Shown here: positions 866 through 64,000 of the stretch, one piece after another
Numbering within the stretch: the first letter of the stretch is position 1
Layout of the letters: every line of letters begins with the position of its first letter
The notes under the pieces: generated by a model
Databases searched by the model: none
What the model was told of the DNA's origin: nothing
The model's input: the letters and a program-made list of their open reading frames with translations, nothing else
Virus record (IMG/VR): IMGVR_UViG_3300037461_001787
Coordinates: 45,278-109,277 of that record
Strand: one strand, 5' to 3'
Source: a virus
DNA: 64,000 bases
Program-made: the position numbers and the translations under genes

Positions 866-977
866 GCATTTTCCATTTTCTGGAACCTGGGCAGCGCGTA
901 TTTACCTTTGAATTAAAAGAGTTTTGATATTGCTGAATGCTGCGCGCGCATCTCAACCCTTTGCAAAGGAGATTTGA

Positions 978-2585
978 ATGGCAATCAAGAAATTCCTTTT
1001 CATGGACGGCACTTACGGTTACCAACATGAGCAAGAATCGACGGACGGCCTCAAGCTCCCCAGTCTGGTTCTGGGCGCGGGTTCCGAATCCGCTGGCAAT
1101 ATCCAGATGTCGGGTACGGGAAAGGTAATTGGTCTGGCCAACGGTACCGATGCGGCCGATGCAATCAACAAGAGCCAGCTGGATGCGGCGATAGCGGGCT
1201 ATGAATGGCAGGCGCCAGTTTCGGTGCTGAAAATGAAGTCGGATGTCGCACGCACACCCACGGGAGCGATCATCGAAGGTTCGGGTGGAACTGGAATCGT
1301 CAATCTGACCACGGGCAATGCTTTCACCGTGGCCATCGACGGCGAAACCCCGGTGGTTGTCACTCTCGCCTCTGCTCCGGCTGATGTGGCAGCGGCAATC
1401 GCGGCCATCAATTCGCTCTATGCGGCGGGTGGCGGAACGGGTGGAACCATCGCGGTCGATGGCGGTGGCGGACAGATCGACATCAAGAGCAACACCACAG
1501 GCACGGGTTCGAGCGTGGCGCTCACCTCGGTGCACGCCAACTGGGCTGAGGTCGGCATCACTGCTGGTACCGACGCTGGCACCAACGATTTGCCCACCGC
1601 GGGTGCTGCGGGCGAGGCGTGGGTCGTCAATGGCTGGGGCACTGGCTACAACAACGGCGACATCGTGGAGTGGGACGGGAGCACCTGGAATGTGGTGCTG
1701 TCCAATTCTGGTGGGGAGCCCCCCAATGCTACCCGTGTAGCGGTCATCAGCGCCAGTGCGGCTGGCTCGTTTGCGGCTCATGAGAATACCATCGGGACGT
1801 ACAATGCGACGACCGACACTTGGTCTTTCTTGGCTGCGACGGACGGGGACGCGGTGCTGGTCTCGGGCGAGAACAGTGTTTACGAAAACATCGGTTTCGT
1901 ATACGACACTGGCTCAAGTTGGGTGGCTTTTACGGGTCCAGCCAGCATTCCGGATGCGACTGGTGCCTCCGGTGGTGGGATCAAAGGCAAGGCGACCTTT
2001 GACACTGACAAAGGGCTTGCGGTTGCTTCGGGCGTGGTTTCGGCCAAGCTCGCTGCAGCGGGTTCGGGTACTGGCGGTTTGGAATTCAACGGCTCGGGTG
2101 CGATGCAGCTGGATCTGGATGCCAGTGGAGCGCTGGATCTGAGCGCCAGTGGGCTCGCCGTGAAGGTGGATGGCTCGACCATCACGATCAATGGTTCCAA
2201 TCAGCTGACAGCCGCTGTGGCGGAGTCGGAGCGGACGGAAAAGGATTACGCTGTTGGTGAAGCCATTGCCAAGGGTGATCCGGTCTATTTCTCGGCGAAT
2301 GACACTGTGTCCAAGGCCGATGCGGGCAATGAGACGAAAGCACGCACGGTCGGTATTGCGCGCATCGCCATCCCCAGCGGCAGCGGGCCCGTGTGCTTCT
2401 CGGGTTTGGTCACGGGTGTGCTCACCACGGCTACGGTCAACACCCCTTACTACTTGGCTTCTGGCGGCGGCTTGACCGCCACTCGGCCGACGGGTAACGT
2501 CCGCATTATCCGCATTGGGTATGCGGCCAGCGCGTCCGATCTGTTGGTCCAGATTACCGACTTTGGCCGTGGTGTTGCTGCGTAA
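978..2585 (+). CDS. Gly/Ala/Thr-rich virion fibre/decoration protein (stalk motif, C-terminal cement-like domain)
   Basis: AAGGAG RBS; LANGTDAADAINKSQLD trimeric-stalk-like motif; GDIVEWDGSTW; C-terminal GEAIAKGDPVY...YYLASGGGLT domain. Confidence 0.65.
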   Translation: MAIKKFLFMDGTYGYQHEQESTDGLKLPSLVLGAGSESAGNIQMSGTGKVIGLANGTDAADAINKSQLDAAIAGYEWQAPVSVLKMKSDVARTPTGAIIEGSGGTGIVNLTTGNAFTVAIDGETPVVVTLASAPADVAAAIAAINSLYAAGGGTGGTIAVDGGGGQIDIKSNTTGTGSSVALTSVHANWAEVGITAGTDAGTNDLPTAGAAGEAWVVNGWGTGYNNGDIVEWDGSTWNVVLSNSGGEPPNATRVAVISASAAGSFAAHENTIGTYNATTDTWSFLAATDGDAVLVSGENSVYENIGFVYDTGSSWVAFTGPASIPDATGASGGGIKGKATFDTDKGLAVASGVVSAKLAAAGSGTGGLEFNGSGAMQLDLDASGALDLSASGLAVKVDGSTITINGSNQLTAAVAESERTEKDYAVGEAIAKGDPVYFSANDTVSKADAGNETKARTVGIARIAIPSGSGPVCFSGLVTGVLTTATVNTPYYLASGGGLTATRPTGNVRIIRIGYAASASDLLVQITDFGRGVAA

Positions 2586-2667
2586 GGGAGTTGACACCCC
2601 GGGCATTGGTTTTGGTGTTCTTTTCCGCTTCCTTGTCCATCTCCAGATAATCGAGTAAGTTGAGGGC

Positions 2668-3228
2668 ATGGCGAAAGATCGTGTGCACCCGCTCAAGCTC
2701 GAAGACTCCCCTAGTGGTGGCGTGGAGCTGGATCCGTATCCCACTGGCTTGGATCCCAATGAGGATTATGTCGATGTGCACGGTATCACTTTCCAGGACG
2801 CGACTTCTAATGACGAGGACGTTTCGATTGAGCGCGATGATTCTGGAAATTTGGTTTTGACTGACAAGATTTCTGGAATCTGGAAACTCTCCGATTTGAG
2901 CGGCGGGGGGCTCACGGAGATAACGCACCCAGCAGTTCGGCAGCTCATTCATTTCGTTGACAATGGTCCGGCAGAGGGCTTTGCGTCTGGAGCTTACCGC
3001 GAGATCACAGGGACGGTGTTTCCGACGGCGGTAATTTGGTATGACCAGGCTGGCGTGGGGAAGAAAAAGATTGTTGAGAAGCTGATCACCTGGACGGGCG
3101 CAACGCCGACAACCATTGTCTGGAAGGTTTACGATGCTGCGGAAGTTTTGATCGCAACGTTGACCGATACGATTACGTATTCAGGGATGTTCGAGACTTC
3201 GCGGGCTCGGACAATTACGGTGGCCTAG
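2668..3228 (+). CDS. Hypothetical virion structural protein
   Basis: Clean ORF in late operon, coupled to next gene (TAG-ATG adjacent). Confidence 0.65.
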   Translation: MAKDRVHPLKLEDSPSGGVELDPYPTGLDPNEDYVDVHGITFQDATSNDEDVSIERDDSGNLVLTDKISGIWKLSDLSGGGLTEITHPAVRQLIHFVDNGPAEGFASGAYREITGTVFPTAVIWYDQAGVGKKKIVEKLITWTGATPTTIVWKVYDAAEVLIATLTDTITYSGMFETSRARTITVA

Positions 3229-9560: not shown

Positions 9561-10396
9561 GCGTAAAGGTGCAAATGGTACAAGCGCTCATCCCGCCGGA
9601 ATTGGTTGCGGGGTTGAGCAAAGGCGCGATCAACACGGTGCTGGGCGATATTGCGGCTGGGGCGCGAGCGGAGTGGGTGCGCCTCGGCTCTGAAATCAAT
9701 TCGAGCTTTCGCAACGACTATATCCGCGGCATCCAACCGGTGCAGATGATGGAGGGCGTAGCAGTAGTGGCGCTGGTCGGAGCCGTTCCGCATATGCTGG
9801 AAGACGGGGCCCCAAAGACTGATTTGCGCGATACGTTGCTTGGCCCAAATGTTCCGATCGTGCCAGTTGGCGAGCGCGGCAAACATCAGAGCAAGCCAAA
9901 GGGCAAAAACGAAGAGGGCGGCCCTTACTTTTATCGGGCTATTCCGTTGCGGCATTCCACCCCAGGCACGACCAAGCAAATCGGCCAGCCAATGGGCTCT
10001 CCCTACGCCGGGCATGACGCGGTTGTGAATTCGAAAAAACTCGGCAAAACTGTCTATGCAGCGGCGAAGAAGCTCGCGCCTACTACGGGAATGCCGTATG
10101 GGGGCACAAGCTGGGGGGAAAAGCTCAATACGAGCGATTTTGGGATTCCGCTTCTGAAGCCCCACCACAAGAGCGATATCTACTCCGGCATGTACCGGAT
10201 GCAGAAAACCTATGAAGCGGCTACTCAAAATTACTACATGACTTTCCGCACCATTTCGACCCGCCCGCATCATCGGGATAGTTGGATTCGCAAGCCCTTC
10301 CCCGCGCGGCATTTGGCCAAACAAGTGGCGGCTTACGTCCAGAAAATCGCGCCAGCGGCTTTCCAGGCATACTATCAGGAGCAAGGCATCAAATGA
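9557..10396 (+). CDS. Neck / tail-completion protein
   Basis: MLEDG and YMTFRTIS...SWI motifs; synteny in neck cluster. Confidence 0.6.
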   Translation: MSVKVQMVQALIPPELVAGLSKGAINTVLGDIAAGARAEWVRLGSEINSSFRNDYIRGIQPVQMMEGVAVVALVGAVPHMLEDGAPKTDLRDTLLGPNVPIVPVGERGKHQSKPKGKNEEGGPYFYRAIPLRHSTPGTTKQIGQPMGSPYAGHDAVVNSKKLGKTVYAAAKKLAPTTGMPYGGTSWGEKLNTSDFGIPLLKPHHKSDIYSGMYRMQKTYEAATQNYYMTFRTISTRPHHRDSWIRKPFPARHLAKQVAAYVQKIAPAAFQAYYQEQGIK

Positions 10397-34495: not shown

Positions 34496-34839
34496 TGCCT
34501 GGGCAGTGGAGATTGGCGCTGCGGGTGACCGGGATTGCGCTGGTGGTCACGTTGTTGGTGGTGGGAGTGGCCTTGCTTCACCGGTTTTTCCCACAGCTCG
34601 CCAGTCGCTCTATCGGGCGATTGCAGGGGCGACTGGATGCGGAGAAAGCTGGACTGGCTGTTGCCAAGATTGAGGCACAAGAAGGAGCTGCGGCAGCTCG
34701 GGCTGAAGTGCTCGCTTGTTACGCCCACCAAATGGAGGTGCTTGATGTGCGGCAAAAGGCTCAGGCCGAATCGCTGGAGAAGGACCCCGTGGCTCTCGCT
34801 CGTTATCTGGTGCGGGTGGGCTCTACTGTTTCTCGGTAG
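34492..34839 (+). CDS. Putative inner-membrane spanin-like protein
   Basis: Single N-terminal TM helix plus Ala-rich coiled coil, after holin. Confidence 0.5.
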   Translation: MMPGQWRLALRVTGIALVVTLLVVGVALLHRFFPQLASRSIGRLQGRLDAEKAGLAVAKIEAQEGAAAARAEVLACYAHQMEVLDVRQKAQAESLEKDPVALARYLVRVGSTVSR

Positions 34840-35245
34840 CCTCTACGTGCTTTTCTGGGCTGCGCAGGCAAGCGCGCAAGAGGGCGAGCGGGTCTGTGAC
34901 CCCAAGGACGCAGGGAAGTGCTCCCAGGCGCTCGAAAAGGGTGAAGAGGCGCCATTCAGCGGGCAGTTGTTGACACCAAAGCTCGCAATCGCCTTGGCGC
35001 AGAAGGCTGAAAGGTTCGACATCGAGCTGCAAATCGAGCTGGAAAAGGACCGTGCGCTGGCCCGAATTGACCTTGAATTGCAGCGGCGTCTCAGACAGCT
35101 CGAAAATGCCAGTTTCGAGCGTCAAAAAACGGAGTACGAAAATGCGATTTTTCAGTTTTCGCGTTGGTTTCGCGCTCCGATCGTCGTTTTTGGCAGCGGT
35201 TTGCTTATAGGAATTTTCTCCACACTACTGATTTCAAGCATTTAG
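34745..35245 (+). CDS. Putative second spanin-like membrane protein
   Basis: Signal-like N-terminus ending AQASA; GEEAPFSGQLL; coiled coil; C-terminal TM helix. Start codon uncertain. Confidence 0.45.
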   Translation: MCGKRLRPNRWRRTPWLSLVIWCGWALLFLGSLYVLFWAAQASAQEGERVCDPKDAGKCSQALEKGEEAPFSGQLLTPKLAIALAQKAERFDIELQIELEKDRALARIDLELQRRLRQLENASFERQKTEYENAIFQFSRWFRAPIVVFGSGLLIGIFSTLLISSI

Positions 35246-35251: not shown

Positions 35252-35592
35252 AAAATGCACAAACTTTGTGCATTTTGCCTGTCTGTTTTGCACCAAGTTT
35301 GTGCATTTTTGCGTCCATTTTTGGGGCAAATGGGGGGCATTTGCCAACAGGGGAGGTTTTATTAAATGATTTTGACCAATGTTTTGTGGACCCGGGGGAT
35401 CTCTTGCTTTTTCACCCGAAACGTATTCAAAGGTAGTACCTACTCCCATAGTAATAGATTTTTTATTTATTGATATTACTTCATAAATTGGAAATTTTTT
35501 TTCTGGAATTTTTCTGGAATATAGGGTGCTCTAACCGAAAAATAAAACCCTGTGGAAAAAGTTTTGTCATGCGCACAACATTTGTGCATTTT
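35252..35592. repeat. TTTGTGCATTTT 12-mer family (perfect palindrome plus two further copies)
   Basis: AAAATGCACAAA-C-TTTGTGCATTTT at 35252-35276; direct copies at 35298 and 35581. Confidence 0.85.
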
Positions 35593-39369: not shown

Positions 39370-39527
39370 ATTTCCGGTCTCTTTTTTTGGCTGGCGACTT
39401 AAATCTGATGCCGGGAACGTGAAGCATGTGGTATCGTGGCGGCGAACTTCCACGAGTAGCGCTGACCACGCACCAGGGCTCCGAGTTACCCGCTCGGAGC
39501 CCATTTTATTTTCTGGAAGGAGACGCC

Positions 39528-39944
39528 ATGCAGCAGGTGTTGTTGCTCGAAGCAGAGGGCTTGAGTGAGCAGGAGAAATTGGAGCGTTTGGGCCGAGTGG
39601 CGATCAGCGATCCGGCGCATTTAAAAGCTTGGCTGCGCGACACAAATCGGCGCTGGCTCATTTTTGATGCGTTAGATCTGGTAGATTCTTTGCCTTTTCC
39701 AAGTGGGGTTGACAGTCTGGTGCAGCTGATCGCATGCTACAGGGACCACCGCAGAGCGATCCCCACCGGTCGTGTAGAGGTGCAGACCGATCCGGTAACC
39801 GGCGCCGCAGTCGAGGTGCCTGTATGCAAAGGAGACGCGCTGGAAGTGAGTGAGCTGGATCAGGTGATCCGCTACCTGGTTACGCTCATTCATGAGCGGG
39901 ATCCTGCCTGGCCGTTGGGTTGGGATGCGAGCGGTAAAATATAA
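39528..39944 (+). CDS. Hypothetical protein
   Basis: AAGGAG before ATG 39528 (longer GTG start at 39426 possible). Confidence 0.6.
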   Translation: MQQVLLLEAEGLSEQEKLERLGRVAISDPAHLKAWLRDTNRRWLIFDALDLVDSLPFPSGVDSLVQLIACYRDHRRAIPTGRVEVQTDPVTGAAVEVPVCKGDALEVSELDQVIRYLVTLIHERDPAWPLGWDASGKI

Positions 39945-40607: not shown

Positions 40608-42054
40608 GCGGACCCCGGTACCGGCTTCGGCTGCACCTGCGGCTGGAGATAGATTTCCATTTGGAGTTGAGTATCAAGCGTCATTGCTCAAGTTGCTTGC
40701 GCAGGATGGTTCTTTTGCGTCAGCTGTTATGCCGCATTTGAAGCCGGGGTTTTTCGAGAACGAGGTTTACGGCTGGGCCTTCGCTCGCATGCAGGAGTAC
40801 CGCGAGAAGTACGACAGTGTTCCTTCCTTGCGGATCGTCTGCGAGCAGACGCGCGCGCTCGATGCCCGCGCGCGTGAGTTTTTTCGGCTGACTTTGGAGC
40901 GCGTGCTGGAGGCCGATCTTTCTGCTGAGAGTTGGTTGCGTGATACGGTCATTGATTTTGTCAAACGCCATCTATTCGTGTCTGCTTTTCATGAGTCCCG
41001 CGCTTTTTTCAATACCGGAAATGTCGCTCAGAGCTATGAGGTGATGTACCGGGCCATGGATCGCATCTTTCATACCCAATGGGAGACGGCCGATCGGTGT
41101 TTTTTCTTTGAGGAGTTGTCTCGGCGCATGGCCTACCGGATGGGTACAGATGTGCACGCGGATGCGATGCCTTCGGGTATCCCTGAGTTGGATCATGTGC
41201 TCTCTGGCGGGCTGAAAAAAGGCGAGATGGGTGTTTGGGTCGCTTACCCCAAACGGGGGAAATCGACCATGCTGGTCAATCTGGGCGCGCAGGGTGTTCG
41301 GCGGGCAGATATGCGCGTGCTGCATTATGTTTTGGAGGGTTCCAGAAAAATGGTGGAGAACCGCTATGACGCGGTTTTCGCCCAGGAAGAATATTGGCGG
41401 ATCAAAGATGGATCGCTTTCTACTGAGGCGTGGCAGCGCTTGCAGTATGAGTATCAGGCATATCGGTCGAAGCTGGTTATTCGCGGGCTCACTGAGCGCT
41501 GGACGTATTCGGTGGCGGATTTGCAAGAGGAGATTCGCGAGCTGAAGCAGCGTTACAATTGGGTGCCGGATGCACTGGTCGTCGATTACGGGGACTTGCT
41601 CCGTGCGCGGGAAGAGCATCTGCGCACTGAGACTGAGGTGCAAAGAGCAGCTTTTCGCGATCTGAAGACATTGGCCAATCGTGGCTACGTGTTGTGGACT
41701 GCCTCTCAAGCGCAGCGGCCAAAAGATGATATCGATGTGTCCACTGAGATTCTGCAAGCGCGGCGAGTCGCTGATTGTTACGACAAGGTGCGGGTGGCTG
41801 ATTTTTTGGGGTCGATCAATCAGACGCAAGAGGAACGCGAAGCTCGCCAGGCGCGATTGTACGCAGAACTTTATCGGGACAATGCTGCCGGGCAGCTGAT
41901 TTTGGTTTACGCGGATTTCCAGAAAATGACGATCGCTTCTGCTTCGGCGTTCGGGAATGTAACGCCGGTGGGAGCGGTAGCGGGGGTGGGGCCGGTAGTT
42001 CCGTTGGGCTACGTGAAACCTATAACTCCGATCCAAATGAGGGCGCCAATATGA
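40597..42054 (+). CDS. dnaB: DnaB-like (SF4) replicative helicase
   Basis: SGIPELD..LSGGL; AYPKRGKST; VVDYGDLL; WTASQ. Confidence 0.9.
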   Translation: MPVERTPVPASAAPAAGDRFPFGVEYQASLLKLLAQDGSFASAVMPHLKPGFFENEVYGWAFARMQEYREKYDSVPSLRIVCEQTRALDARAREFFRLTLERVLEADLSAESWLRDTVIDFVKRHLFVSAFHESRAFFNTGNVAQSYEVMYRAMDRIFHTQWETADRCFFFEELSRRMAYRMGTDVHADAMPSGIPELDHVLSGGLKKGEMGVWVAYPKRGKSTMLVNLGAQGVRRADMRVLHYVLEGSRKMVENRYDAVFAQEEYWRIKDGSLSTEAWQRLQYEYQAYRSKLVIRGLTERWTYSVADLQEEIRELKQRYNWVPDALVVDYGDLLRAREEHLRTETEVQRAAFRDLKTLANRGYVLWTASQAQRPKDDIDVSTEILQARRVADCYDKVRVADFLGSINQTQEEREARQARLYAELYRDNAAGQLILVYADFQKMTIASASAFGNVTPVGAVAGVGPVVPLGYVKPITPIQMRAPI

Positions 42055-43064
42055 GCTGGTCCGCGATCGATCGTTTTGACGTGTCAGGTTATCTGCAAAA
42101 GTTTTCTCCCAGGCGGGTGCAGGCGGATGAGGTGGTGCTGCGATGCCCGAAATGCGGAAAAGACAAATTGACGGTCAATGTTCAACGTAGGACCTGGCAT
42201 TGCTGGGTTTGCGAAGAGTTTACGATCGATTACCAGACTGGCCAGCGCCGGGCGGTGAGCGGGGCAGGCGGGTTGCTCGCGCTCATCTCCATGCTGGAAG
42301 GGATAGGGAGGGAGCAGGCTGCGGAATGGGTGCGGAATCGGAGTGGGCTGCTTGGCGAAGAGGCCTGGATGCGCGGCGGGCAGATGGAGCAGCGGCCTGA
42401 GTCGTTTGAGCTACCTACGCTGCCGATGATCCTCCCGCCGGAAGGCGCTGCCCCAATACACGGCACCTTGCCGTATTTAGAAAAACGCGGTATACTGGAA
42501 GATGATGTGCGGCTCTTTGGTTTGTTCTGGTGTTCGAGCGGGCGCTACGCCAACCGGGTGGTGTTCCCCGTCTATGAGACCGGGCGCATGGTCTACTACC
42601 AGGCTCGGGCGATGTGGGATCCGTTCCCAGGAGAGCGGTTCCAGAAAGCACTCAATCCGCCGGCGGCTCCGGGGGCAGCGACAGCGGGTGAGGTGTTGAT
42701 GAATCTGGACGTGGCCAAGAATTTCCCGCGGGTGGCGATCGTGGAGGGTCCGGTGGATTGCATTCACGCGGGGCCCAGTGCGGTGGCCACCTTTGGGAAG
42801 AAGATCACTTTGGTCCAGATGCTCAAGCTCCGGCAGGCCGGGGTGCGGGCAGTGGACCTGATGTGGGATGGGCCAAGCGCCAGCGAGCCGGAGGGCGCAT
42901 GGCCGGAGATGGTAGCCACCGCTCCAAAGCTTGCGGGGCTCTTTGATGTTCGATTGGTGCGGCTGCCGCAGGGGGACCCTGGGGAGTACAGTCGTGGAGC
43001 GCTGGAGGCCTTCCGGTTCCAGGCCCGGCCGGTGGGAGCGGTATCCAGGTTGGAGTCGTTGTAG
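42051..43064 (+). CDS. dnaG: DNA primase (zinc finger + TOPRIM)
   Basis: CPKC...HCWVC; YLEKRGI; RVVFP; VEGPVD; MWDG; DPGE. Confidence 0.88.
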   Translation: MSWSAIDRFDVSGYLQKFSPRRVQADEVVLRCPKCGKDKLTVNVQRRTWHCWVCEEFTIDYQTGQRRAVSGAGGLLALISMLEGIGREQAAEWVRNRSGLLGEEAWMRGGQMEQRPESFELPTLPMILPPEGAAPIHGTLPYLEKRGILEDDVRLFGLFWCSSGRYANRVVFPVYETGRMVYYQARAMWDPFPGERFQKALNPPAAPGAATAGEVLMNLDVAKNFPRVAIVEGPVDCIHAGPSAVATFGKKITLVQMLKLRQAGVRAVDLMWDGPSASEPEGAWPEMVATAPKLAGLFDVRLVRLPQGDPGEYSRGALEAFRFQARPVGAVSRLESL

Positions 43065-43084: not shown

Positions 43085-43342
43085 ATGACCAAGAAAAGTT
43101 TGTTGGGGGCCCAGGAGGATCGGATCAAAACTGACCTCCGGCTGCCTCCGGAGTTGCTGGATCAGGTTGAGCAGATCACCACGGCGTTGCAGATACCCAA
43201 AAACGCTTTTTTCGTCTTGGCGGCGTCGTTGCTGGTGTTGCAGTTATCGCCTTTGGTGCGGGTCAAGCAGCGCAAGGCGCTGGTAATGGCGGTTCAGGAT
43301 CTTTTCCAGAAAGTGCTGGGAGAGATTGCAAAGACCTTATAA
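43085..43342 (+). CDS. Ribbon-helix-helix (Arc/CopG-like) DNA-binding protein
   Basis: RIKTDLRLPPELLDQVEQITTALQIPKNAFFVLA. Confidence 0.65.
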   Translation: MTKKSLLGAQEDRIKTDLRLPPELLDQVEQITTALQIPKNAFFVLAASLLVLQLSPLVRVKQRKALVMAVQDLFQKVLGEIAKTL

Positions 43343-43395
43343 TCATGGGTTAGAAGTTGCCCTTCCAGATTTTGCGTCAATTACATTTTCTACTG

Positions 43396-43424
43396 TTGAC
43401 ATTTCCGGCGTAGAGCCGTATTCC
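43396..43424 (+). promoter_or_regulatory. Putative sigma70 promoter upstream of AAA ATPase
   Basis: TTGACA-17 bp-TATTCC in the intergenic gap. Confidence 0.5.
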
Positions 43425-43445
43425 AGATATGGGTGTGTGGGAAAA

Positions 43446-44361: not shown

Positions 44362-44913
44362 GTGGACGATACTGTGTATCGATTGGAATATTATTCGGTG
44401 GTAGTGGAGGAGGATTCGAAAACTCCAGTGTTTGTTACGCTGGGTGATACTGTGGACGAAATCAAGGAATGGGCAACGCTTCAGATGACTGCGATGTTGG
44501 CTACGGCAATGGAGGAAAAGGTGATTTTGCCGTTCGACGCATCCAAGATGCAGTTGTGGCCGCGGGCAAAGTTTCGTCGGGAGATTGGGCAGCTTGATTT
44601 GCATACTGCGGAGTACGCTGAATGGTACGGCCGTTCGATAGTGGCGTATTTGACATTTCGGGTGGGCAAAGAGGTCGAGTGGCTCAGCGCAGCGCTGCGT
44701 GCTGGGGAGCACAAAGAAGCTACAAAATTTGGGGATTCGCTGCGAAAGAGTTGGTTTCATCTGTTCGCCGCGTTGGAATCCTGTGATGTGCGGCCGGTTA
44801 TTATCGAGCATGAGCCGGATGCGCGGTGTGCTTCTTGCTCTGAAGTGCATGATTGCTCCAAGGGGTTGGAGTATATGTTGCACCTGGATCCGGCAAAGAA
44901 AATTCTGAACTGA
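44362..44913 (+). CDS. Hypothetical protein
   Basis: GTG after AAGGA; fills gap between the AAA and vWA genes; CASC near the C-terminus. Confidence 0.6.
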   Translation: MDDTVYRLEYYSVVVEEDSKTPVFVTLGDTVDEIKEWATLQMTAMLATAMEEKVILPFDASKMQLWPRAKFRREIGQLDLHTAEYAEWYGRSIVAYLTFRVGKEVEWLSAALRAGEHKEATKFGDSLRKSWFHLFAALESCDVRPVIIEHEPDARCASCSEVHDCSKGLEYMLHLDPAKKILN

Positions 44914-46655
44914 TGCCCTTGTCGTTTACAGAAGCTGCTTTGGAATCCCGGAGTGAACGCATCGCGCGGATGATGACCCGCCAGTACGGGGTGCGGGTGC
45001 GCATTGAGGGTTCGCTTGCTTATGTGGATTCTTGCACGCTGGAAATTGTGTTGCCCAATTTTAGTGATGCGCATTTAGGAGCATTGGGCAAGGCTTTTGA
45101 CGGATTTTTAGACCATGAATGCGCGCATCTCCTGTTCACAAAGTTTGACTGCGTGGCAGCGTTGCGCGAGCCCACACGCGGAATCTGGAATGCGTTGGAA
45201 GATGCTTGGATCGAGCGGCGCATGTCGCAGGAGTATCCCGGGTGCGGGGAAAATCTAGGCGTGTTGGATCAATTGATTGGCGAGAAGGTGCGGGAGGAAT
45301 GGGAAATGGTGCCCCATGGGGCACGTTTTTTGCACATGGTTGGTTGTTATGCGCGAAAAGGGCGCTGCCCAAAAGAGTTGGAATTGGATGCTGTGGTCCA
45401 GAAATGGGTGGAGGCGGCGCGGGCAGAGCTAGAGCGGGCTTCCAGGATCGCTTCGACGGCCGAGGCCGCAAAATTGGCCGAGGCTATTGTCGCGGCGATA
45501 TGCTGGAAGGCGCTTGCGCCTCCTCCATCAGCTGTTGGGGGGATGGAGGGGATGCCTCTGTCGCTGATGGGGGAAGGGGAGATGGATGCTTTGATGGATT
45601 TGGCTACGGGTACGGGCCCGCGATGCGATGCTGAGTGGCTGGTCAATTCTATCGGAGAGCGGGTAGCGGCAGAGAGCGCAATCGGGGAGAAAGGGAGTGG
45701 GCCAGCGGAGTACAACGTGTTTTCTACTGCTTACGATTTTGATCGGGTTTTTGATAGGGAGGAGCGGCTCGAATGGAGCGCGGAATATCGAGCGCTACGT
45801 GAGAAGGTCGCGGACTATATCGGCACCATGGCAGCGAGCTTAGAGCTGGCTCTGGCCTCCCAGTCTCAGGTGCGTTGGATTGGGGGACAGCGCCGGGGGC
45901 GGCGATGGGATCGGCGGGCGTTACCGCGTTGGTTTTTGGGGGGAGACGATGATCGTGTTTTTGCCGTAAAAGAGCAGGGGACGGCGCTCGATACGGCGGT
46001 CACGTTGCTGTGGGATTGTTCGGGGTCAATGGGCTCTGTCCGGCACGTCACTTCAAAGTCTGTGTTAGCGCGTTTGGCGGCTGTGGCATTTCACGAGGCG
46101 TTGTTGAAGGCGGGAGTGCCGCATGAGGTGCTTGGCTTCAATACCTCTGCCAGTCCACCGGCAGAGTTGGTGGACCGGGTGCGTCGAGTGATTGCTGCGG
46201 GGGGGAATGTTTCTGCGTACAGTAGGCTCGATGAGATCGATAATCGGATGGTGCTTGTACCTTTTTCTGGAACGGATGGGCGCGCAATTTGTGCGATTGA
46301 TGGGCATGGCGCCAATCGGGATGGAGAGTGTGTGCTTTGGGCTGCGCGGCGTCTTGCTGCGCGCCCGGAGAGTCGGCGGATTCTCATCGTGGGTTCGGAT
46401 GGCCTACCCCAAGGGGCGATTTACAACGATACCGAATGCCGCTATCTCAAGCAGGTGGTGGAACGGATTTCGGCTGCGGGGATTGAGACGATTGGTATTG
46501 GGATTCAGAGCAAAGCTGTGAAGGAATTTTATCCCCGTTCGGTGGTGCTGCGGGATATTTCAGCGTTGCCGGGCGTGATTATGCGAGAGTTAGTCACCCT
46601 TTTGACAAGTGAGGCACATCGTGGAAGTGCAAAAGGAGCAGGTGGAGTATCTTGA
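44913..46655 (+). CDS. CobT-like protein: HExxH zincin-like N-domain + vWA (MIDAS) domain
   Basis: DHECAH...WNALEDAWIE; WDCSGSM; SDGLP; TIGIGI. Confidence 0.85.
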   Translation: MPLSFTEAALESRSERIARMMTRQYGVRVRIEGSLAYVDSCTLEIVLPNFSDAHLGALGKAFDGFLDHECAHLLFTKFDCVAALREPTRGIWNALEDAWIERRMSQEYPGCGENLGVLDQLIGEKVREEWEMVPHGARFLHMVGCYARKGRCPKELELDAVVQKWVEAARAELERASRIASTAEAAKLAEAIVAAICWKALAPPPSAVGGMEGMPLSLMGEGEMDALMDLATGTGPRCDAEWLVNSIGERVAAESAIGEKGSGPAEYNVFSTAYDFDRVFDREERLEWSAEYRALREKVADYIGTMAASLELALASQSQVRWIGGQRRGRRWDRRALPRWFLGGDDDRVFAVKEQGTALDTAVTLLWDCSGSMGSVRHVTSKSVLARLAAVAFHEALLKAGVPHEVLGFNTSASPPAELVDRVRRVIAAGGNVSAYSRLDEIDNRMVLVPFSGTDGRAICAIDGHGANRDGECVLWAARRLAARPESRRILIVGSDGLPQGAIYNDTECRYLKQVVERISAAGIETIGIGIQSKAVKEFYPRSVVLRDISALPGVIMRELVTLLTSEAHRGSAKGAGGVS

Positions 46656-47162: not shown

Positions 47163-47225
47163 TCTGGATTTCTGGACTTCGCTGCGATAGGTCTGAATGC
47201 GGGCAGTCCAGAAAAATTCCAGAAA
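47163..47225. promoter_or_regulatory. Inverted cluster of TCCAGA(AA) motifs in intergenic DNA
   Basis: TCTGGA-TTTCTGGACT ... AGTCCAGAAA-AATTCCAGAAA, with a 10-bp perfect inverted core. Confidence 0.6.
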
Positions 47226-47236: not shown

Positions 47237-48310
47237 ATGAGCATGCCAAGTTGTTACGGTCAGGTGTGGGAAGGGGTTGCGGGATCCATTTGCGTGGATC
47301 AGGGATGCGGGGTGATCGATGACTGTCTCATGCGTTTCGCCAGTGGGGTGCTAGTGGACTGGCAGCGGCAGCTGGGTGAGTCGGCCAGCGTTGAGCAGCT
47401 CTCCCAGGCCATGGCAGTTAAGCCAGAGGCGATTCAGCGGGCGCTTGAATTCCAGAAAACTGCAGGGATTATCCCGTTTGTCAAATCAGTTGTGATCCCA
47501 GCTCCGGTAGAGCAGGTACTGCCGCAGGCTTCGCCTGCAATGGTAGAGGTGGCGGTTACTGAAGTATCGGAGGTGGGGTGCCCGTCTGAAGAGCAACAGC
47601 AATCTGTTGTGGATGCTCCATTGGCGGAGGTGGTCGAGATGCCCGTGACCGCGGAAGCAACGCGGGCGCTAGAGGAGGTAGCGGGGATGGTCATTCGGAA
47701 GAAAAATAAGGGCAGGGCAAAAGCCGCGCCCAAGGGCAAAATGCCCAGGGGTACGGGGACGAAAAAGGGGGCGGCGTCAACTGTTACCCGCCGCCCCAAG
47801 TCGGCCGGGCCTGCGAAGAGTGCCAGGGTACCGGCCAAGGGCAACAAGGCGTGTGTGCGCCTTGTTGCGGCACAGGGCGCCAGCAAAAAACGGGGGCGCA
47901 AGCCGGCACAGCCGGAACAGGGTGCGCACAAGAAGTTGGAGCGCAAGTCAGCGGCGGAAGAGCAGAGCCGGCAGTGGGGCCGATCGGCAGCGATGAATCG
48001 CAGTCGGTGGCAGCGGGAGCGGGAGCGGTCATCTCTCATTGCGCAGTTGAAGCCCGGCATGAAGTTGAAGCGACTTTGGGAGGGCAAAACTCTGGAAGTC
48101 GTCTGTGTGCGGGACGGGTACCGGTACCAGGGAGATATCTATCCGACGCTTTACAGCGTGGTGATGGCGATTGTGGGGACAGTTCCCAGAAAGAAACAGA
48201 AGAAGGCGGACGGCACAATCCCTGGGGGTACGCGCAATCTAACAAACTGGTCAGCGCCGAAATTTTTCAGACTCCCCTGGATCATCGGGGGCAAGAAGGG
48301 CGCGACGTAA
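47237..48310 (+). CDS. DUF2924-domain protein with N-terminal Cys motif and Lys/Ala-rich H1-like linker
   Basis: C-terminal LKPGMKLKRLWEG...GYRYQGDIYPTLYSVVMAIVGT...NWSAPKFFRL; N-terminal CYG...C....C.....C. Confidence 0.7.
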   Translation: MSMPSCYGQVWEGVAGSICVDQGCGVIDDCLMRFASGVLVDWQRQLGESASVEQLSQAMAVKPEAIQRALEFQKTAGIIPFVKSVVIPAPVEQVLPQASPAMVEVAVTEVSEVGCPSEEQQQSVVDAPLAEVVEMPVTAEATRALEEVAGMVIRKKNKGRAKAAPKGKMPRGTGTKKGAASTVTRRPKSAGPAKSARVPAKGNKACVRLVAAQGASKKRGRKPAQPEQGAHKKLERKSAAEEQSRQWGRSAAMNRSRWQRERERSSLIAQLKPGMKLKRLWEGKTLEVVCVRDGYRYQGDIYPTLYSVVMAIVGTVPRKKQKKADGTIPGGTRNLTNWSAPKFFRLPWIIGGKKGAT

Positions 48311-48615: not shown

Positions 48616-51435
48616 ATGGCGGTGCAGACAACCGGTTTTCACGATTACGTGTTGGAGCATCGCCGTCCCGACTGTCATTTGATCATGACGGGAGATCGCT
48701 TTGAGTGGATGATTCGTTTTCTGGAGGCAAGCCCAATATTGGTTTATGACACTGAGACAAGCGGGCTTGATTGGTTTCGCGATGCCCGGGCGTGCGGGGT
48801 AGCTTTTGGCGGAATTTCTGGAACGGAGGCCCATCAGTTTTACGTGCCTTTCCGCCATCGCACTGGCGAGCAGCAATTGGACATCGAGCGCATCTCGCCG
48901 GCGATTCGTCAGCTGCTCGCCAGTGCGAAGTTTAAGATCGGTCATCATCTGAAGTTTGATAAGCACATTTCGCATCGGGAGGGTTGGAAAATTGCACCTC
49001 CAGTCTATGACACGATGGTTGCGGCCAAGCTTTACGATGAGAATCGTTTTATCGCGCTCAAGACCCGAGCGGTCGAGGATCTGGGTCGTGAGGATGCCAA
49101 GGTTGGCGAGCGCAGAGTGGCGATGATGGTCGCGCAGCTCGCCAAGCAGCAGAAGATGGGTATCTCTGAGTACCGCTCGCGGTACGGTTACAGTCAGGTG
49201 CCGATTTGGCTGCTCGGGGAGTACGCTTGCGGGGATGTGGAGTTTACCCGGTTGCTTTGGCAGTTCTACGAGGATCCGCAGCGCTCCATCTCCCAGCGTT
49301 TCCCGCGCATCTGGGCCACTGAGATGGACTTGATCGATGTGCTTTGCGATGCCGAGGAGGCGGGGATCGCCATCGATGTGGAGTATCTATCGCGGTTGCG
49401 CCAGGAGCTGCGCGATCACCTTGCGCAGATCGAGGCTGAGATCAGGTTGTTGTTTGATGGGCGCAAGTTAGAATTGGGATCGGATGCGGCGGTGCGTCGG
49501 TTTCTGTTGGAGGAGTTACGTTGTCCGCTGACCAAGCTCACCCGCGGGGGTAAGAGCGGGGAGAAGCAGTTTGCGGTGGACAAGGAGGTGTTGGCTGAGT
49601 TTGCTCATGTGCACCCGGTGGTCCCGCGTATCGTGGCTTGGCGAGAAGCGGAAAAGTTGGCGAACACGTACACCTCGTCGATTCTGGATCGGATTGATTC
49701 CAGAAATTACCTGCATCCGGAGTTTCAGCAGGTGGGAACTACTTCGGGTAGGCTATCTTGTAGTTCACCTAATTTCCAGAATCAGCCGGTGGACGATGAC
49801 GAACGGGCCAAGCGCTATTCTGGAAAGTCTCTGGAAGAGGGCGGGGTTGATCCTTGGTCTATTCGTCGGGCTTACGTGGTGGGAAGGCCGGGGTGTGCTA
49901 GATTGTTTTTTGATTACTGCCTTGCGCCGGAGACGCTGGTGGAGACGGTTGCGGGTAAGCGCCCGTTGGGCGACCTGCAAGCGGGAGACAAAGTTTATAC
50001 CTATCGCGATGGGAAAATTGCGTGGGGGGCGGTGACGCGCAGCGTGCGAGTGGGATTTCTCCCGGCGTACCGGGTGACGTTTGACAATGGGGAGAGTGTG
50101 GTGGCGTCGGCGGATCATAGGTGGCCGATTCGGGTGCGTAGACCGGGGAAAGGGGGGCCGCTGGCGGAAGAGATTCGGACTACCAGCGAGTTGCAAGTTG
50201 GGGATCGGATGATTCCGATGAAGCGGGTGCAAGCTAATTACGTCCACCTCTATTCTCGGGGAGCTACGTTGTACACCAAAGAGCATTTGTTGGTGGCAGA
50301 AGCGGTATTAGGGCCTTGCCCTGCGGATTACGTGGTGCACCACATAGATGAAGATAAAAGCAACAATCATTTTTCTAATTTGAAATATGTGCCGCGGGGA
50401 GCGCATTTCAGTGTTCATGGGAGAGCGAATTACCAAAAGCAAGATCACATAAAGCGGCTGGCGGCTTTACGGGTGGGGTTGGCGGATCGGCGTAACTATG
50501 CTGGGGCGGGGAATCCCAATTTTGGGAAGCAGAAAGGCGCGCCAGTGGAGTGCGCTTGCTGCGGGAAAGTCTTTTATCGTCCGCCCAGTCATGCGGCTAA
50601 GTTTTGTTCGCAAAAATGCTATTTCCAAGCAAAGCGCGACGGGAATAATCATCGGGTGGTGGCGATTGAATTTCTTGGGGATCGGGAAATGGCCGCGATC
50701 ACGGTAGAGCCTGATCATAATTTTGTATTGGGTTGTGGGGTGGTGACTTGTAACTCGCAAATCGAACTTCGCGTTTTGGCGTTTTATACTCGTGACCCCA
50801 TTCTGGTGGACGCTTACTTGAAGGGCGAGGACATTCACACCCGTACTTCCCAGGAGGTGTTTGGTACTGCTGACAAGGCTTGGCGGAGGAAGGCAAAGGT
50901 AGTGAATTTCGGCCTGTCATATTGTATGACAGAGTACGGATTTTCCCGACAAGCCAAGATACCGGTCGATGAGGCGCGGGCTTATCTGGAAAAGTTTTTC
51001 CAGCGATACAAAGGTATTATGGACTTTCGCCGGGCGTTCTGGACGCAGGTGCGGGTGCAGCATGGGTACTTCGCGAATTTATTCGGGCGGCCGCGGCGGG
51101 TTACGGGCATCAGTTCGGCGGATGATTACAAGCGGGGGCAGGCTGAGCGCGAGGCTATCGCTAGCCTGGTGCAGGGGACAGCGGCCGAGCTGACCAAGGA
51201 ATCGCTGGTGCGCATTGCTCGATTCTTCAAGGAACGCTCGCTGCCCGCTCAGATTGTCTCGACGGTGCATGATGAGATCCAAATTGATTGCGACTCGCGG
51301 GCGCTACCGGAAGTGGTTCTGGGGGTGAAGGCCTTGATGGAGGCGTTTCCCGAATTCGCCCCTATCCCGATCAAGGTGGATGGTGATTACAGCGCGACGA
51401 GTTGGGCAGATAAGCGAAAGTTACCAAAGGAATAG
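48616..51435 (+). CDS. polA: Family A DNA polymerase with 3'-5' exonuclease, containing an intein
   Basis: YDTETSGL; TTSGRLS..PNFQN; motif A DY//SQIELR split by intein; RRKAKVVNFG; VHDEI. Confidence 0.95.
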   Translation: MAVQTTGFHDYVLEHRRPDCHLIMTGDRFEWMIRFLEASPILVYDTETSGLDWFRDARACGVAFGGISGTEAHQFYVPFRHRTGEQQLDIERISPAIRQLLASAKFKIGHHLKFDKHISHREGWKIAPPVYDTMVAAKLYDENRFIALKTRAVEDLGREDAKVGERRVAMMVAQLAKQQKMGISEYRSRYGYSQVPIWLLGEYACGDVEFTRLLWQFYEDPQRSISQRFPRIWATEMDLIDVLCDAEEAGIAIDVEYLSRLRQELRDHLAQIEAEIRLLFDGRKLELGSDAAVRRFLLEELRCPLTKLTRGGKSGEKQFAVDKEVLAEFAHVHPVVPRIVAWREAEKLANTYTSSILDRIDSRNYLHPEFQQVGTTSGRLSCSSPNFQNQPVDDDERAKRYSGKSLEEGGVDPWSIRRAYVVGRPGCARLFFDYCLAPETLVETVAGKRPLGDLQAGDKVYTYRDGKIAWGAVTRSVRVGFLPAYRVTFDNGESVVASADHRWPIRVRRPGKGGPLAEEIRTTSELQVGDRMIPMKRVQANYVHLYSRGATLYTKEHLLVAEAVLGPCPADYVVHHIDEDKSNNHFSNLKYVPRGAHFSVHGRANYQKQDHIKRLAALRVGLADRRNYAGAGNPNFGKQKGAPVECACCGKVFYRPPSHAAKFCSQKCYFQAKRDGNNHRVVAIEFLGDREMAAITVEPDHNFVLGCGVVTCNSQIELRVLAFYTRDPILVDAYLKGEDIHTRTSQEVFGTADKAWRRKAKVVNFGLSYCMTEYGFSRQAKIPVDEARAYLEKFFQRYKGIMDFRRAFWTQVRVQHGYFANLFGRPRRVTGISSADDYKRGQAEREAIASLVQGTAAELTKESLVRIARFFKERSLPAQIVSTVHDEIQIDCDSRALPEVVLGVKALMEAFPEFAPIPIKVDGDYSATSWADKRKLPKE
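49918..50754 (+). mobile_element. Intein with HNH homing endonuclease in PolA motif A
   Basis: Starts CLAPETLV; ASADHRW; VHHIDEDKSNNHFSNL; CACCGKVF...FCSQKC; ends VVTCN|S. Confidence 0.92.
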
Positions 51436-62021: not shown

Positions 62022-63022
62022 TGGATTTGGGGCAGGCCATCAAAACAGTGCTGCGAATTTGCCCCAAGGAACAGCACTATTATCGGTCTGTACGGTTTTT
62101 TCCTGGCAGTGATGGGGGTCCGGATACGGTTTGCGCTACCGATGGCATGTGCACTTTTGTTTGCGCTTTGCCCTCTTCTGGATTGCCCAATGCGCTGCTC
62201 TCTGCTGATTTGCTCAAACGTGCTTTGGCAGGCGGGACGGCGCCATTGGCGCTTACGGCTGCGCCTTATGGTTGGGTGACTGGGCAAGTAGGTGGCGCTA
62301 CTTATCAATTTCCGGGTATCGATTTTGCGAACTATCCTGGCATCCCGCAAATACCGCAGTGGTCTGGGAGGATCGATGCGGAGGATATCGCTCATGTGGC
62401 GGTGGCGGCCGAGAAGGCGGGTGGGGAGCTGGATTTGATTCGTTTTGGTAACGGTTTTTTGGAGGCGACCGATCGCGCGCAATTCATTCGCTTGGAAGTT
62501 TCCGCGGCTTTTGATGCGGTAGTTCCTGCGCGTTTGTTTGCGGGGTGGAAAGACGGCATGGTGTGGATGGGCAAAACGGAATCGACGGCGTTTTTCGCCC
62601 GTGATTGCGAGCTACGTTTTGCGGCGCTCCAAAAAAATGTTTTTCCGCATACTGAGGATACGCCAGATGAGCATATGGGCCCGTGGGCGCTGTTGCCGAC
62701 AGAGGCATTTGCGACGGCGATCAAGCGGGGAGCGGCAGTATCGCGTTTTCATGTAGTGGAGCTATCTTTTGCGGCGGACAAGGTGACGGTACGGGCCCTC
62801 ATCGAAGATCGCTCCAAAGGTGATAAGCTATACCTGGCTGAGGTGCCGGTGCTTGGTGGCGTAATCGAACCTGAAGTGATGGTGTTGTCCGGGAGGGTTT
62901 TCTATCGCATTCTCGGTCTGATCAAGACGCCTAATGTGAAGGTTGGTTACGGCGGTCCGTTGCGCCCGGTGCGTGTGGAATCGGCGAATTGGTTTGCGCT
63001 ACTGTGGCAGATGACCATTTGA
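62021..63022 (+). CDS. Divergent DNA polymerase III beta-clamp-like protein
   Basis: 333 aa; repeated ATD motifs (VCATDG, LEATDR); NYPGIP linker; three-domain size. Confidence 0.5.
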   Translation: MDLGQAIKTVLRICPKEQHYYRSVRFFPGSDGGPDTVCATDGMCTFVCALPSSGLPNALLSADLLKRALAGGTAPLALTAAPYGWVTGQVGGATYQFPGIDFANYPGIPQIPQWSGRIDAEDIAHVAVAAEKAGGELDLIRFGNGFLEATDRAQFIRLEVSAAFDAVVPARLFAGWKDGMVWMGKTESTAFFARDCELRFAALQKNVFPHTEDTPDEHMGPWALLPTEAFATAIKRGAAVSRFHVVELSFAADKVTVRALIEDRSKGDKLYLAEVPVLGGVIEPEVMVLSGRVFYRILGLIKTPNVKVGYGGPLRPVRVESANWFALLWQMTI

Positions 63023-63041
63023 GCATCATCGGAGGTGCGCA

Positions 63042-64000
63042 GTGGCAGACGCGACGGAATTTTTCGCGCAATTGGGAGAGTTCTCGCGGCGGGTTTTTTC
63101 TATGCTGGGGCTTCAGAACACGAGTAGTCCGTGGGTCACTGGGGTTTTTCCTGAGGGGCAACCCACTGGGGCGGTGTTGCATTACACTGGTTCTCGTGAT
63201 GCTTACTCCACGGCTCTTTGGTTTATGAATCCAGAATTAGAAAGCAAGGTATCGGCGCACGTAATTATTGGCACTGAGTGGCCGCAGGGGGTGCGCGAGC
63301 GGCATGCGCATGATTTGCTTTTGGTGCGCGAGCTGCCGACGATGGTTTTGCAATGTGTCGCTCCCAACGTCATCGCGCATCATGCGACCTGGTGCAATCG
63401 GCATTCGGTTGGGTTGGAGCTGGTGAATTGGGGTGAGGTGCGTTTTAATTCTGAATTGGGTTGGGTTGTGTACCCACAGGGTTGGACCAAGCGTTATCAG
63501 GCGCGGGGCAATGACTTCCCGCAGTCTGCGTTGAAGCGTTATTGGGAACCCTACTCAGCGGCACAGGTGCGTTGCGCGGTCGAGGTGCTGCGTTGGTATC
63601 GGCGGTGGATGGGAGGCCGGATGCGCCCGGAATGGGTGCTTGGGCATGAGCAAGTGCAGGGTGTGGCTACTATTGGTGCTACTGGCGATAAGCGGGATCC
63701 GGGTCCGTTGCTGCCGTTACATGATATGCGGTTGGCCGCTTTGGGTGATGATGTGGTGGAGCAGTTGGGGTGGTTCCAGAAATTTTCGTCGGATCCGTTA
63801 TACGCCAGCAAAATACGCGATGGGATGCTGATCGATTGGTATCTCGGGCATCCTGGCGCGGTGGTGGGGGAACGCGCTTTGGATGTGGCGCAGAAGCGAT
63901 TTGCGGCGGCGGTCTATGAGTTGGGGACGGCAGGATCATGGAAAGCTGCTTTTGGTGCGTTGGGCAAAACGTGCTTGCGGTTGCTGGGTTATTATATTCC
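63042..64000 (+). CDS. N-acetylmuramoyl-L-alanine amidase (Amidase_2), probable endolysin, 3' truncated; absent from supplied ORF track
   Basis: My translation from GTG 63042 (GGAGGT RBS): AVLHYTG...VSAHVIIG...AHHA...N..SVGLELVN...VLGHEQV...KRDPGP; frame open to the window end. Confidence 0.88.
   Translation, partial: MADATEFFAQLGEFSRRVFSMLGLQNTSSPWVTGVFPEGQPTGAVLHYTGSRDAYSTALWFMNPELESKVSAHVIIGTEWPQGVRERHAHDLLLVRELPTMVLQCVAPNVIAHHATWCNRHSVGLELVNWGEVRFNSELGWVVYPQGWTKRYQARGNDFPQSALKRYWEPYSAAQVRCAVEVLRWYRRWMGGRMRPEWVLGHEQVQGVATIGATGDKRDPGPLLPLHDMRLAALGDDVVEQLGWFQKFSSDPLYASKIRDGMLIDWYLGHPGAVVGERALDVAQKRFAAAVYELGTAGSWKAAFGALGKTCLRLLGYYI

Follow-up and report, generated by a model that had tools for sequence, protein, structure and literature searches.

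The phage contig and its recurrent nine-base word

The DNA considered here is a 64,000-nucleotide stretch (the window), the right-hand part of one contig of 109,277 bp from an uncultured phage (IMG/VR record IMGVR_UViG_3300037461_001787, labelled G000), and our subject is a nine-base word, TTCCAGAAA (read as TTTCTGGAA on the opposite strand), that recurs throughout it. Genes were taken from simple longest open reading frame (ORF) calls. The phage is a tailed one, with nearly all genes on one strand (+) of the contig. Structural and lysis functions include the large terminase, portal, baseplate J, a tail-tube initiator and an amidase endolysin, and the genes for replication and recombination comprise a DnaB-like helicase, primase, SSB, clamp, an intein-bearing PolA, RecA, SbcCD-like proteins and RuvC. 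A CobS/CobT pair and three giant head-associated proteins are also encoded. A six-frame search of the complete contig found no tyrosine or serine recombinase.

Relatives were drawn from IMG/VR, JGI metagenomes and one metagenome-assembled genome (MAG). Of cultured relatives there are none: no nucleotide match was obtained, and the best identity of the large terminase (TerL) is 35%, to Bacteroides phages.

Frequency, consensus and placement of the word

The initial annotation of this DNA, made from the letters of the window, had listed 56 copies between positions 877 and 63782, and every one of its coordinates holds an exact TTCCAGAAA or TTTCTGGAA (27 on the + strand, 29 on the – strand). Dinucleotide-preserving shuffles of the window give 0.57 ± 0.70 copies, with a maximum of 3. 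On the complete contig the word occurs 112 times (55 +, 57 –) and is by far the commonest 9-mer, where Markov models of order 0-3 predict 0.6-2.8 copies. The sibling words that the annotation had named for comparison are rare genome-wide (TTCCGGAAA three times, TTCTAGAAA once, TTCCTGAAA never), and TTCCAGGAA likewise occurs once on the contig.

The base preceding the word is G, A or T in 41, 28 and 24% of cases and C in 6%, and the base following it is A or T in 52 and 25%. The site is therefore asymmetric, with the consensus D-TTCCAGAAA-W, and the extended quasi-palindrome TTTTC-CA-GAAAA proposed earlier is not borne out by this flank composition. Positions 3-7 (CCAGA, within the TCCAG core) hardly vary, and change is tolerated at the outer positions only. 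Variants with a mismatch at the edge are mildly enriched, which together with the invariant centre is as expected for graded binding affinity.

Most sites (94 of the 112) lie inside genes, at a density of 0.99 per kb in coding and 1.25 per kb in non-coding DNA, and all six codon phases are used, as had been annotated. Spacing is near random (mean 968 bp, coefficient of variation 0.85). The strand order of the sites is random by a runs test, with nearly all genes on the + strand, and each strand carries about one site per 1.95 kb, evenly spread. Neither G000 nor two of its relatives, G005 and G001, shows an orientation skew or switch along the genome; G001 has terminal repeats and hence fixed ends. 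The random orientation (55/57), the lack of genome polarity and the equal density in coding and non-coding DNA together fit recognition of the word as double-stranded DNA.

Some sites are arranged in tandem, as in the following non-coding feature of the window.

35500..35519, – strand: tandem double site (two copies 11 bp apart), non-coding, pointing towards a small minus-strand ORF

Besides the gene start with the array described below, three gene starts have tandem double modules just upstream of them. Two such modules precede plus-strand genes outside the window (L145:12335-12360 and genome position 43372), and the form of the 35500..35519 site recurs at 47207-47225, in the right half of an array described below.

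Selection at the DNA level

The copies in genes are not accounted for by the proteins that those genes encode. Synonymous-codon shuffling, in which the proteins and the per-gene codon usage are kept, leaves 6.9 ± 2.3 copies (maximum 13) against the 94 observed, and shuffling codon order within genes leaves 0.9. The enrichment thus survives both codon- and dinucleotide-preserving nulls, and an artefact of codon or dipeptide usage is ruled out by the two gene-wise shuffles.

The spelling of particular peptides gives a similar picture. Without exception the FQK tripeptides (18) have the spelling TTCCAGAAA, and of the 21 FLE tripeptides 19 have the spelling TTTCTGGAA. These peptides are themselves in excess (FQK, 18 against 2.4 expected, or 7.5x; FLE, 21 against 5.7, or 3.7x), so that protein sequence has been bent to carry the word. 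Where the word is read as S-R it imposes AGA, the rarest Arg codon, at eight sites; the forced use of this codon had been noticed before. Taken with the positional conservation and the site-creating amino-acid replacements described in the next section, the shuffles and the FQK/FLE spelling uphold the annotation’s central claim of a selected DNA-level signal, for which neither a protein motif nor codon bias offers an explanation. A word that overrides codon choice and even protein sequence must bring a large benefit.

Conservation of individual sites among relatives

One comparison is provided by G005, a 96.8-kb record classed as ‘provirus’ in IMG/VR, which is syntenic with G000 at about 71% nucleotide identity, can be aligned with it along its entire length with no host flank seen, and holds 105 copies of the same 9-mer. 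The conservation in related contigs to be expected of a selected word is present here, as 48 of the 71 aligned G000 sites (68%) are exact in G005 against 6.8% of background 9-mers. Inside the motif the two genomes have a per-base identity of 0.79-0.93, compared with about 0.68 for the flanks. Purifying selection acts on the individual sites.

In a five-way alignment of about 20 kb of G000, G005, L149, L150 and L151, many sites are common to all five genomes, and others are lineage-specific gains in well-aligned coding DNA. These gains arise through conservative amino-acid replacements. At one gene start, for example, G000 reads M-K-F-Q-K where the relatives read M-K-I-N-R, M-R-V-N-R or M-K-I-E-K, and at another gained site F-E-Q or F-G-Q has become F-Q-K. 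An assembly artefact is argued against, because independent assemblies from other metagenomes share sites at homologous positions.

These observations also bear on the simplest alternative, namely that the word has no function and was written by biased mutation, repair or gene conversion, or by codon and dipeptide usage. In enterobacteria, very-short-patch repair can favour words of the CCAG type, and at some of the gained sites as many as 5-7 of the 9 bases are not those of the relatives. We nevertheless regard this account as very improbable. The excess vanishes under synonymous and codon-order shuffles, neighbours with T for C show no unusual depletion and are much too scarce to be the source of 112 sites, site-by-site conservation is ten times background, the gains follow conservative amino-acid paths, and a sister phage shows the opposite trend (below).

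Dialects and avoidance

Across the relatives, the word is a lineage trait with dialects, taking the form TTCCAGAAA, GTCCAGAA, TCCAGAC(T/A), TTCCAGAGA or bare TCCAG. Dialect carriers are G005, L149-151, L152, G309, G002 and G001, and the dialect words of the clade include GTCCAGAAT, TCCAGACT and TTCCAGAGA. Seen from the TCCAG core, the extensions found across relatives are AAA, AA(T), AC(T/A), AGA and C(A/T)(A/T). Four carriers are given below.

G002: TCCAGAC(T/A), 44 in 14.4 kb
L152: TTCCAGAGA
G309: GTCCAGAA(T), with TCCAGAA 41 times against 5 for the control
G001 (109 kb, terminal repeats, 64% GC): bare TCCAG, 800 copies, with a weak C(A/T)(A/T) extension

In G001, 718 copies of TCCAG fall in genes against 355 after synonymous shuffling, and the spacing comes down to one word per 140 bp. 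Site positions are not common to G000 and G001.

When all 512 pentamers were scored against synonymous shuffles, TCCAG/CTGGA came out as the top enriched pentamer in G000, G001 and G005. The same pentamer is the most depleted one in G308 (IMGVR_UViG_3300037308_000202; L169-L173), a syntenic relative of 84,958 bp, where 61 copies stand against 151.6 expected (z –14.4) and the depletion holds in both orientations. In G004 it ranks fifth from the bottom, and G003 is depleted of it too. No further strongly iterated word came to light in G308, in which CTGCAG and CTCGAG are enriched about threefold.

A contrast within a sister pair is given by G001 and G004 (portal tree, support 100/99). Their alignment covers 9,451 bases at 72% identity and contains 68 cores in G001 but 5 in G004. 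Of 67 cores of G001, no more than 3 are preserved in G004, compared with 19.8% for background pentamers. Amino acids are preserved at 32 of the 57 changed core sites, and there G004 reads TCCAA, TCAAG, TCGAG or TTCAG. One short word has therefore been under opposite directional selection in close relatives.

Two further observations on word usage were made. G001 has a second over-represented word, GAGGAGAGCGA, with about 25 copies where 1-2 are expected, placed directly before start codons (L010-L015); it looks like an extended ribosome-binding site, and a similar AGGAGAGCGAGCG-ATG context occurs in G000 (L145:12020-12040). The most depleted pentamers of G000 itself contain TTAA (ATTAA, CTTAA, TTAAA, TAATA), with counts of, for example, 9-12 where about 80-98 are expected, and G005 shares the shortage of CTTAA. 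This depletion may reflect avoidance of a restriction-type target or of stop-codon-like words.

An operator-like array and a candidate reader gene

Sites of the word are found in a particular arrangement in front of one gene of the window.

47163..47225, + strand: operator-like array directly upstream of the DUF2924 gene
47237..48310, + strand: candidate reader, 357 aa, with a Pfam DUF2924 C-terminal domain and a winged-helix-like N-domain

The left half of the array consists of two CTGGA cores 8 bp apart (47164 and 47172), and after a spacer of about 30 nt the right half follows with two TCCAG cores 11 bp apart (47207 and 47218). The last core merges into the ribosome-binding site (AAAGGA), and the ATG is at 47237. 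An identical 2+2 inverted arrangement is present in G000, G005, L149, L150 and L151, with diverged spacer sequence. The initial annotation had suggested a binding site for a dimeric protein; an operator-like array before a predicted DNA-binding gene agrees with the binding part of this suggestion, and a dimer seated on a quasi-palindrome is unlikely, the site being asymmetric.

The array and the avoidance described above bear on a reading in which the word serves as a priming signal. The machinery for it lies within the window.

40573-42054: DnaB-like helicase, with the primase the machinery of a priming-site reading
42051..43064, + strand: DNA primase, PHROG 47, the other part of that machinery

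By this account the phage’s DnaG-type primase and DnaB-like helicase would start lagging-strand primers at (TTT)CTGGA(A), and about one site per 2 kb would be kept on each strand since forks pass either way in a genome that replicates by recombination. The even two-strand spread (about 1 per 1.95 kb per strand) would suit such a role, as would the presence of primase, replicative helicase, SSB, clamp, PolA, RecA, SbcCD and RuvC. Bacterial and T7 primases use short template words, CTG for E. coli DnaG and GTC for T7, and CTG is part of the core of the word; dialects could arise as the zinc finger of the primase changes. Priming leaves unexplained, however, the conserved inverted 2+2 array and the double modules before gene starts, as well as the purge of the pentamer from both strands in G308 and G004, though G308 retains a 44%-identical primase. 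We know of no primase that needs a 9-bp word and of no phage with a 40-fold enrichment of primase sites. On this evidence, we give the priming account little weight.

The 357-aa protein begins with a Cys-rich segment, followed by a winged-helix-like helical domain (residues ~25-85), a variable Lys/Ala/Pro-rich linker that is basic in the manner of H1 and has AT-hook RGRP repeats in relatives, as seen in alignments, and the DUF2924 domain (~250-350; PF11149 matches residues 251-315 with E 5.4e-9 and 36.9 bits, the cut-off being 31.2). A recent paper treats DUF2924 as identical with the DNA-binding domain RAMA (PMC11342252); Pfam’s own model for RAMA, PF18755, has no match in the protein. The 50 top structural neighbours of the N-domain are almost all winged helix-turn-helix (wHTH) DNA-binding domains (at a modest Z of 5-6.1, local predicted local distance difference test (pLDDT) score ~78-80). 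The DUF2924 domain is modelled with high confidence (pLDDT 91.5). CcrM’s C-terminal DNA-binding domain and MPND’s SAND-like domain come out as its best VIA neighbours, with a Z of 4.7 that is weak; Foldseek against the PDB returned nothing at E <= 0.001. The full-length prediction is poor (pLDDT 47).

The DUF2924 family was traced through 228 clusters of relatives, which mostly share the same architecture with the domain C-terminal; the family’s distant alignments A3 and A4 were too diverse for locus finding. A tblastn search of 50,697 phage records with the domain found nothing. TCCAG occurs 4.8-7.4 times per kb at every one of eight metagenome loci with a gene for a homologue, a density that is not independent evidence as all eight come from one phage lineage. 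The gene is intact in every enriched contig that covers the syntenic region. In the TCCAG avoider G308 the homologue (L167:8974-10413 and 9833-10267) is rearranged, its N-part and DUF2924 part lying in different frames. The N-part frame comprises the N-domain, five AT-hook repeats (PVKRGRGRPPK) and an inserted DnaJ-like CxxCxGxG finger, and the DUF2924 part, in the other frame, has a loop deleted. This split may be an assembly frameshift, a programmed frameshift or decay. A rearranged gene in an avoider fits a link between reader and word, in this one case only.

Other proteins were considered for the same role. The 2443-aa giant virion protein was rejected as the reader, as it matches neither a Pfam family nor RAMA, and BLASTP finds nothing in common between it and the DUF2924 protein. 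Two proteins of the window are alternative reader candidates, as judged from their sequence distribution.

34535..35245, + strand: 236-aa protein of no known family, present in every motif-enriched relative examined (G001, G005, G309), with no hit in G308
39426..39944, + strand: 172-aa protein of no known family, present in every enricher examined and not detected in G308

As to the neighbourhood of the candidate gene, a CobS-like AAA+ ATPase of the MoxR/CbbQ type (43326-44360) and a CobT-like vWA protein (44853-46655) are encoded just upstream of it. Neither member of this pair has a tblastn homologue in G001.

The domain composition of the 357-aa protein and the purge in relatives could also be taken to indicate a modification or restriction-like target, a phage counterpart of the methyltransferase-linked highly iterated palindrome (HIP) words, which owners of the system would modify and tolerate or exploit and relatives without it would avoid. 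In G308, G004 and G003 a single short word is strongly avoided, a pattern classically left by a nuclease target. Fusions of RAMA domains with restriction enzymes and adenine methylases are frequent, according to Iyer 2016 as cited in PMC11342252, and the best, if weak, structural neighbour of the C-domain belongs to the methyltransferase CcrM. Large polyvalent proteins that are injected are present too, and they include an SNF2 helicase and a nucleotidyltransferase. Against this, N6/N4 (PF01555), C5 (PF00145) and D12 (PF02086) DNA methyltransferases were all absent from the six frames of the complete contig at E <= 0.1, and Pfam scans of about 80 ORFs returned no other modification enzyme, so that the footprint of DNA modification or repair which the initial annotation had entertained is left with no phage enzyme behind it, though a host enzyme might act. 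Tolerance explains neither a 40-100-fold enrichment nor purifying selection on single sites nor amino-acid changes that create sites, and the site is asymmetric, unlike HIP words. We consider a modification target improbable.

Host and wider distribution

The sole lead to a host is a fragment of this phage lineage in a scaffolded Myxococcales MAG. The record CP070713.1 (‘MAG: Myxococcales bacterium bin5’, 2.82-2.98 Mb; L146, L157-L164) holds only a four-gene capsid module, with a capsid protein 70% identical, and the module sits between 100-N scaffold gaps. As this ‘chromosome’ is a scaffolded MAG, the link to a host rests on binning only.

The MAG genome has 18 copies of the word against 25 of a control word. 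Enrichment in candidate host genomes, which the annotation had raised, was seen in none of the 301 genomes of the weakly indicated host phylum, the MAG included, where the word reaches at most about 0.03 per kb. A host-wide signal is thereby ruled out where tested, and the analogy with uptake sequences fails within the same 301 genomes. The contrast between phage DNA (about 1 per kb) and the cellular DNA searched is large. In IMG/VR, a scan for motif pairs (two copies within 31 bp) returned more than 119 loci, of which the only truly enriched one was the relative L070, identical with G005. The same word in unrelated phages was rejected, as AT-rich matches are enriched only 1.2-2x and are strongly strand-biased, consistent with codon usage and ascertainment. 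The signal belongs to the phage lineage and not to the host.

A host factor could still be what reads the word, either as a Chi-like signal that acts on a helicase-nuclease or as a decoy array that soaks up a defence protein. Enrichment and avoidance in close relatives could then be two answers to one factor. Chi words do accumulate in some phages, and the G001 dialect GCTGGA resembles the first half of E. coli Chi. The sites show no polarity or orientation switch, however, even in G001 with its fixed ends, and the only phylum with a weak host link shows no enrichment in 301 genomes. The several dialects within one lineage and the array at a phage gene start point instead to a phage-encoded partner, and we think a host reader unlikely.

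Other features of the contig

At least four inteins are present, at window positions 36829-39369 and 48616-51435 and at L002:1849-7371 and L002:9213-13553. Their hosts are a ResIII/DEAD helicase (LAGLIDADG), PolA (HNH), the SNF2 helicase module of a 1840-aa head protein (LAGLIDADG) and a 1446-aa protein in which InPase and a nucleotidyltransferase of the PolyA-polymerase type are also found. An ADP-ribosylglycohydrolase gene with a strong match (L001:2879-3931; Pfam E 5.6e-63) is located in the phage’s early region.

A proposed docking site for a phage-encoded protein

There are several possible explanations for a word that is written into one phage lineage and erased from parts of it. We favour, with a probability of about 0.5, the reading that TTCCAGAAA is the docking site of a phage-encoded, sequence-specific protein that binds double-stranded DNA. 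Selection would keep about one site per kilobase across the chromosome, in either orientation and in genes as well as gaps, and through these sites the protein would mark or organise the phage’s own DNA. It would read TCCAG together with an extension particular to the lineage. In favour of this are sites that are asymmetric yet free in orientation, graded tolerance at their edges, like densities in genes and spacers, the dialects, and an array conserved in a regulatory position. The most likely reader is the 357-aa DUF2924 protein (47237-48310), a proposal to which we assign somewhat less than even odds. Its globular winged-helix-like and RAMA/DUF2924 domains would read the TCCAG core, with the basic H1/AT-hook-like linker lying in the adjacent A-tract. 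The 2+2 array at the start of its own gene could give feedback control, and the dialects of relatives might reflect co-evolution of the reader and its sites. The purge in sister phages suggests that untended sites are a liability in the vicinity of a relative’s reader, through silencing, exclusion or roadblocks.

A number of points weigh against this reading. The array region contains no sigma-70 consensus promoter by a simple scan, and the array was not found in the more distant G001, L154 and L156. Its four cores might be conserved simply as motif sites generally are, and at 5.3 cores per kb four of them in about 60 bp are not improbable alone. Neither domain of the modelled protein has more than weak structural matches (Z 4.7 and 5-6.1). 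In G308 a DUF2924 domain persists and looks selected, and loss of the motif alongside an altered reader is a single case. The presence/absence pattern of the 236-aa and 172-aa proteins matches or betters that of the DUF2924 gene. In G001 no more than a pentamer is enriched (800 copies), and five bases are unusually few for specific binding. Finally, a docking site as such leaves the benefit of more than 100 sites unexplained.

A sub-model of the docking-site explanation is immunity of the stoperator type, in which a repressor would silence the genome in a dormant plasmid-like or carrier state and block superinfecting kin; dialects would then be immunity groups and the avoiders escape lineages. 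Many asymmetric, dispersed sites with an operator-like array at the candidate reader’s gene agree with it, dialects and purging in sister phages are what escape from a relative’s repressor should produce, and G005 is labelled a ‘provirus’ in IMG/VR. G005 nevertheless aligns over its whole length with G000, with no host flank seen, and the complete contig is without a tyrosine or serine recombinase. The sites show no orientation bias relative to transcription and are mostly intragenic, and there are 112 to 800 of them where known stoperators number 20-36. Immunity of this kind is a rather unlikely form for the system to take.

A broader form of the docking-site reading is ‘chromosome-tagging’, in which a wHTH/H1-like/RAMA reader and its word co-evolve, sister phages that have departed from the system purge the word, and reading of the tag works in trans, as a weapon or a barrier that sets related phages against one another. 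We regard this as speculative and, on present evidence, doubtful. If true, viral chromosomes would here have a self/non-self system addressed by sequence, for which no counterpart is described. That one and the same pentamer heads the enriched words of some relatives and the avoided words of others points in any case to conflict, between related phages or with a host defence.

To our knowledge, RAMA/DUF2924 has no solved function. Identification of the reader would provide a new sequence-specific DNA-binding module, and would let such phages and their immunity or exclusion groups be recognised from sequence alone.

Comparison with known systems

Highly iterated, selected words are few (HIP1, uptake sequences, Chi and stoperators among them), and several are unexplained after decades. 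In our literature search for the word and for over-represented phage oligomers, no paper on the word or the clade was found.

The system closest in logic is stoperator immunity. In Cluster A mycobacteriophages (L5 gp71, Bxb1 gp69), stoperators are asymmetric sites of about 13 bp that occur in 20-36 copies, in one orientation and in intergenic DNA. Both systems have a short asymmetric site repeated over a phage genome, presumably with one phage-encoded reader that also has sites in regulatory regions, and in both the site sequence varies between related phages. The present word is 9-11 bp long. It differs in its 112 copies (up to 800 pentamer cores in G001), in lying mostly in genes (94 of 112 sites) and in random orientation (55 + against 57 –), and in a genome without an integrase. 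Its candidate reader has a wHTH/basic-linker/RAMA build unlike the gp71-type repressor, and sister lineages avoid the core. The likeness thus fails on orientation bias, intergenic location and a temperate genome.

DNA uptake sequences (DUS) of Neisseriaceae and uptake signal sequences (USS) of Pasteurellaceae are likewise asymmetric words of 9-12 bp, found about once per kilobase through genes in all frames, with a conserved core, lineage-specific dialects and the character of a ‘self’ label. Here, by contrast, the carrier is a phage and not a competent bacterium, there is no uptake machinery, the 301 bacterial genomes are unenriched, and avoidance of the core by sister lineages is not a feature of DUS.

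With HIP1 the phage word shares a length of 8-9 bp, an enrichment of around 100-fold, selection inside genes and an unclear reader or role, as HIP1 is described in PMC4390886. HIP1 and the alternate HIPs of cyanobacteria are palindromes linked to orphan methyltransferases (PMC4390886). The phage word is asymmetric, its palindromic siblings are rare (TTCCGGAAA 3, TTCTAGAAA 1, TTCCAGGAA 1), and the phage has no methyltransferase. The orientation skew of Chi and of the FtsK-orienting polar sequences (KOPS) is not seen in G000, G005 or G001.

Among nucleoid proteins, Noc with its binding sites (NBS), SlmA with its own (SBS), MatP with matS and ParB with parS use palindromic sites of 14-16 bp, far fewer per kilobase, on cellular chromosomes. 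There, as is proposed for the phage word, dispersed specific sites, in their tens, let one protein mark or organise a replicon; the candidate reader has no homology to Noc, SlmA, MatP or ParB.

What is added here is the position-by-position conservation of the word, the dichotomy of enriching or purging it, seen even in a sister pair, and a candidate reader with a conserved array. The phage also offers a tractable case, with a 109-kb genome, a sharply defined 9-mer, at least five dialects, natural ‘purged’ sisters and a short list of candidates.

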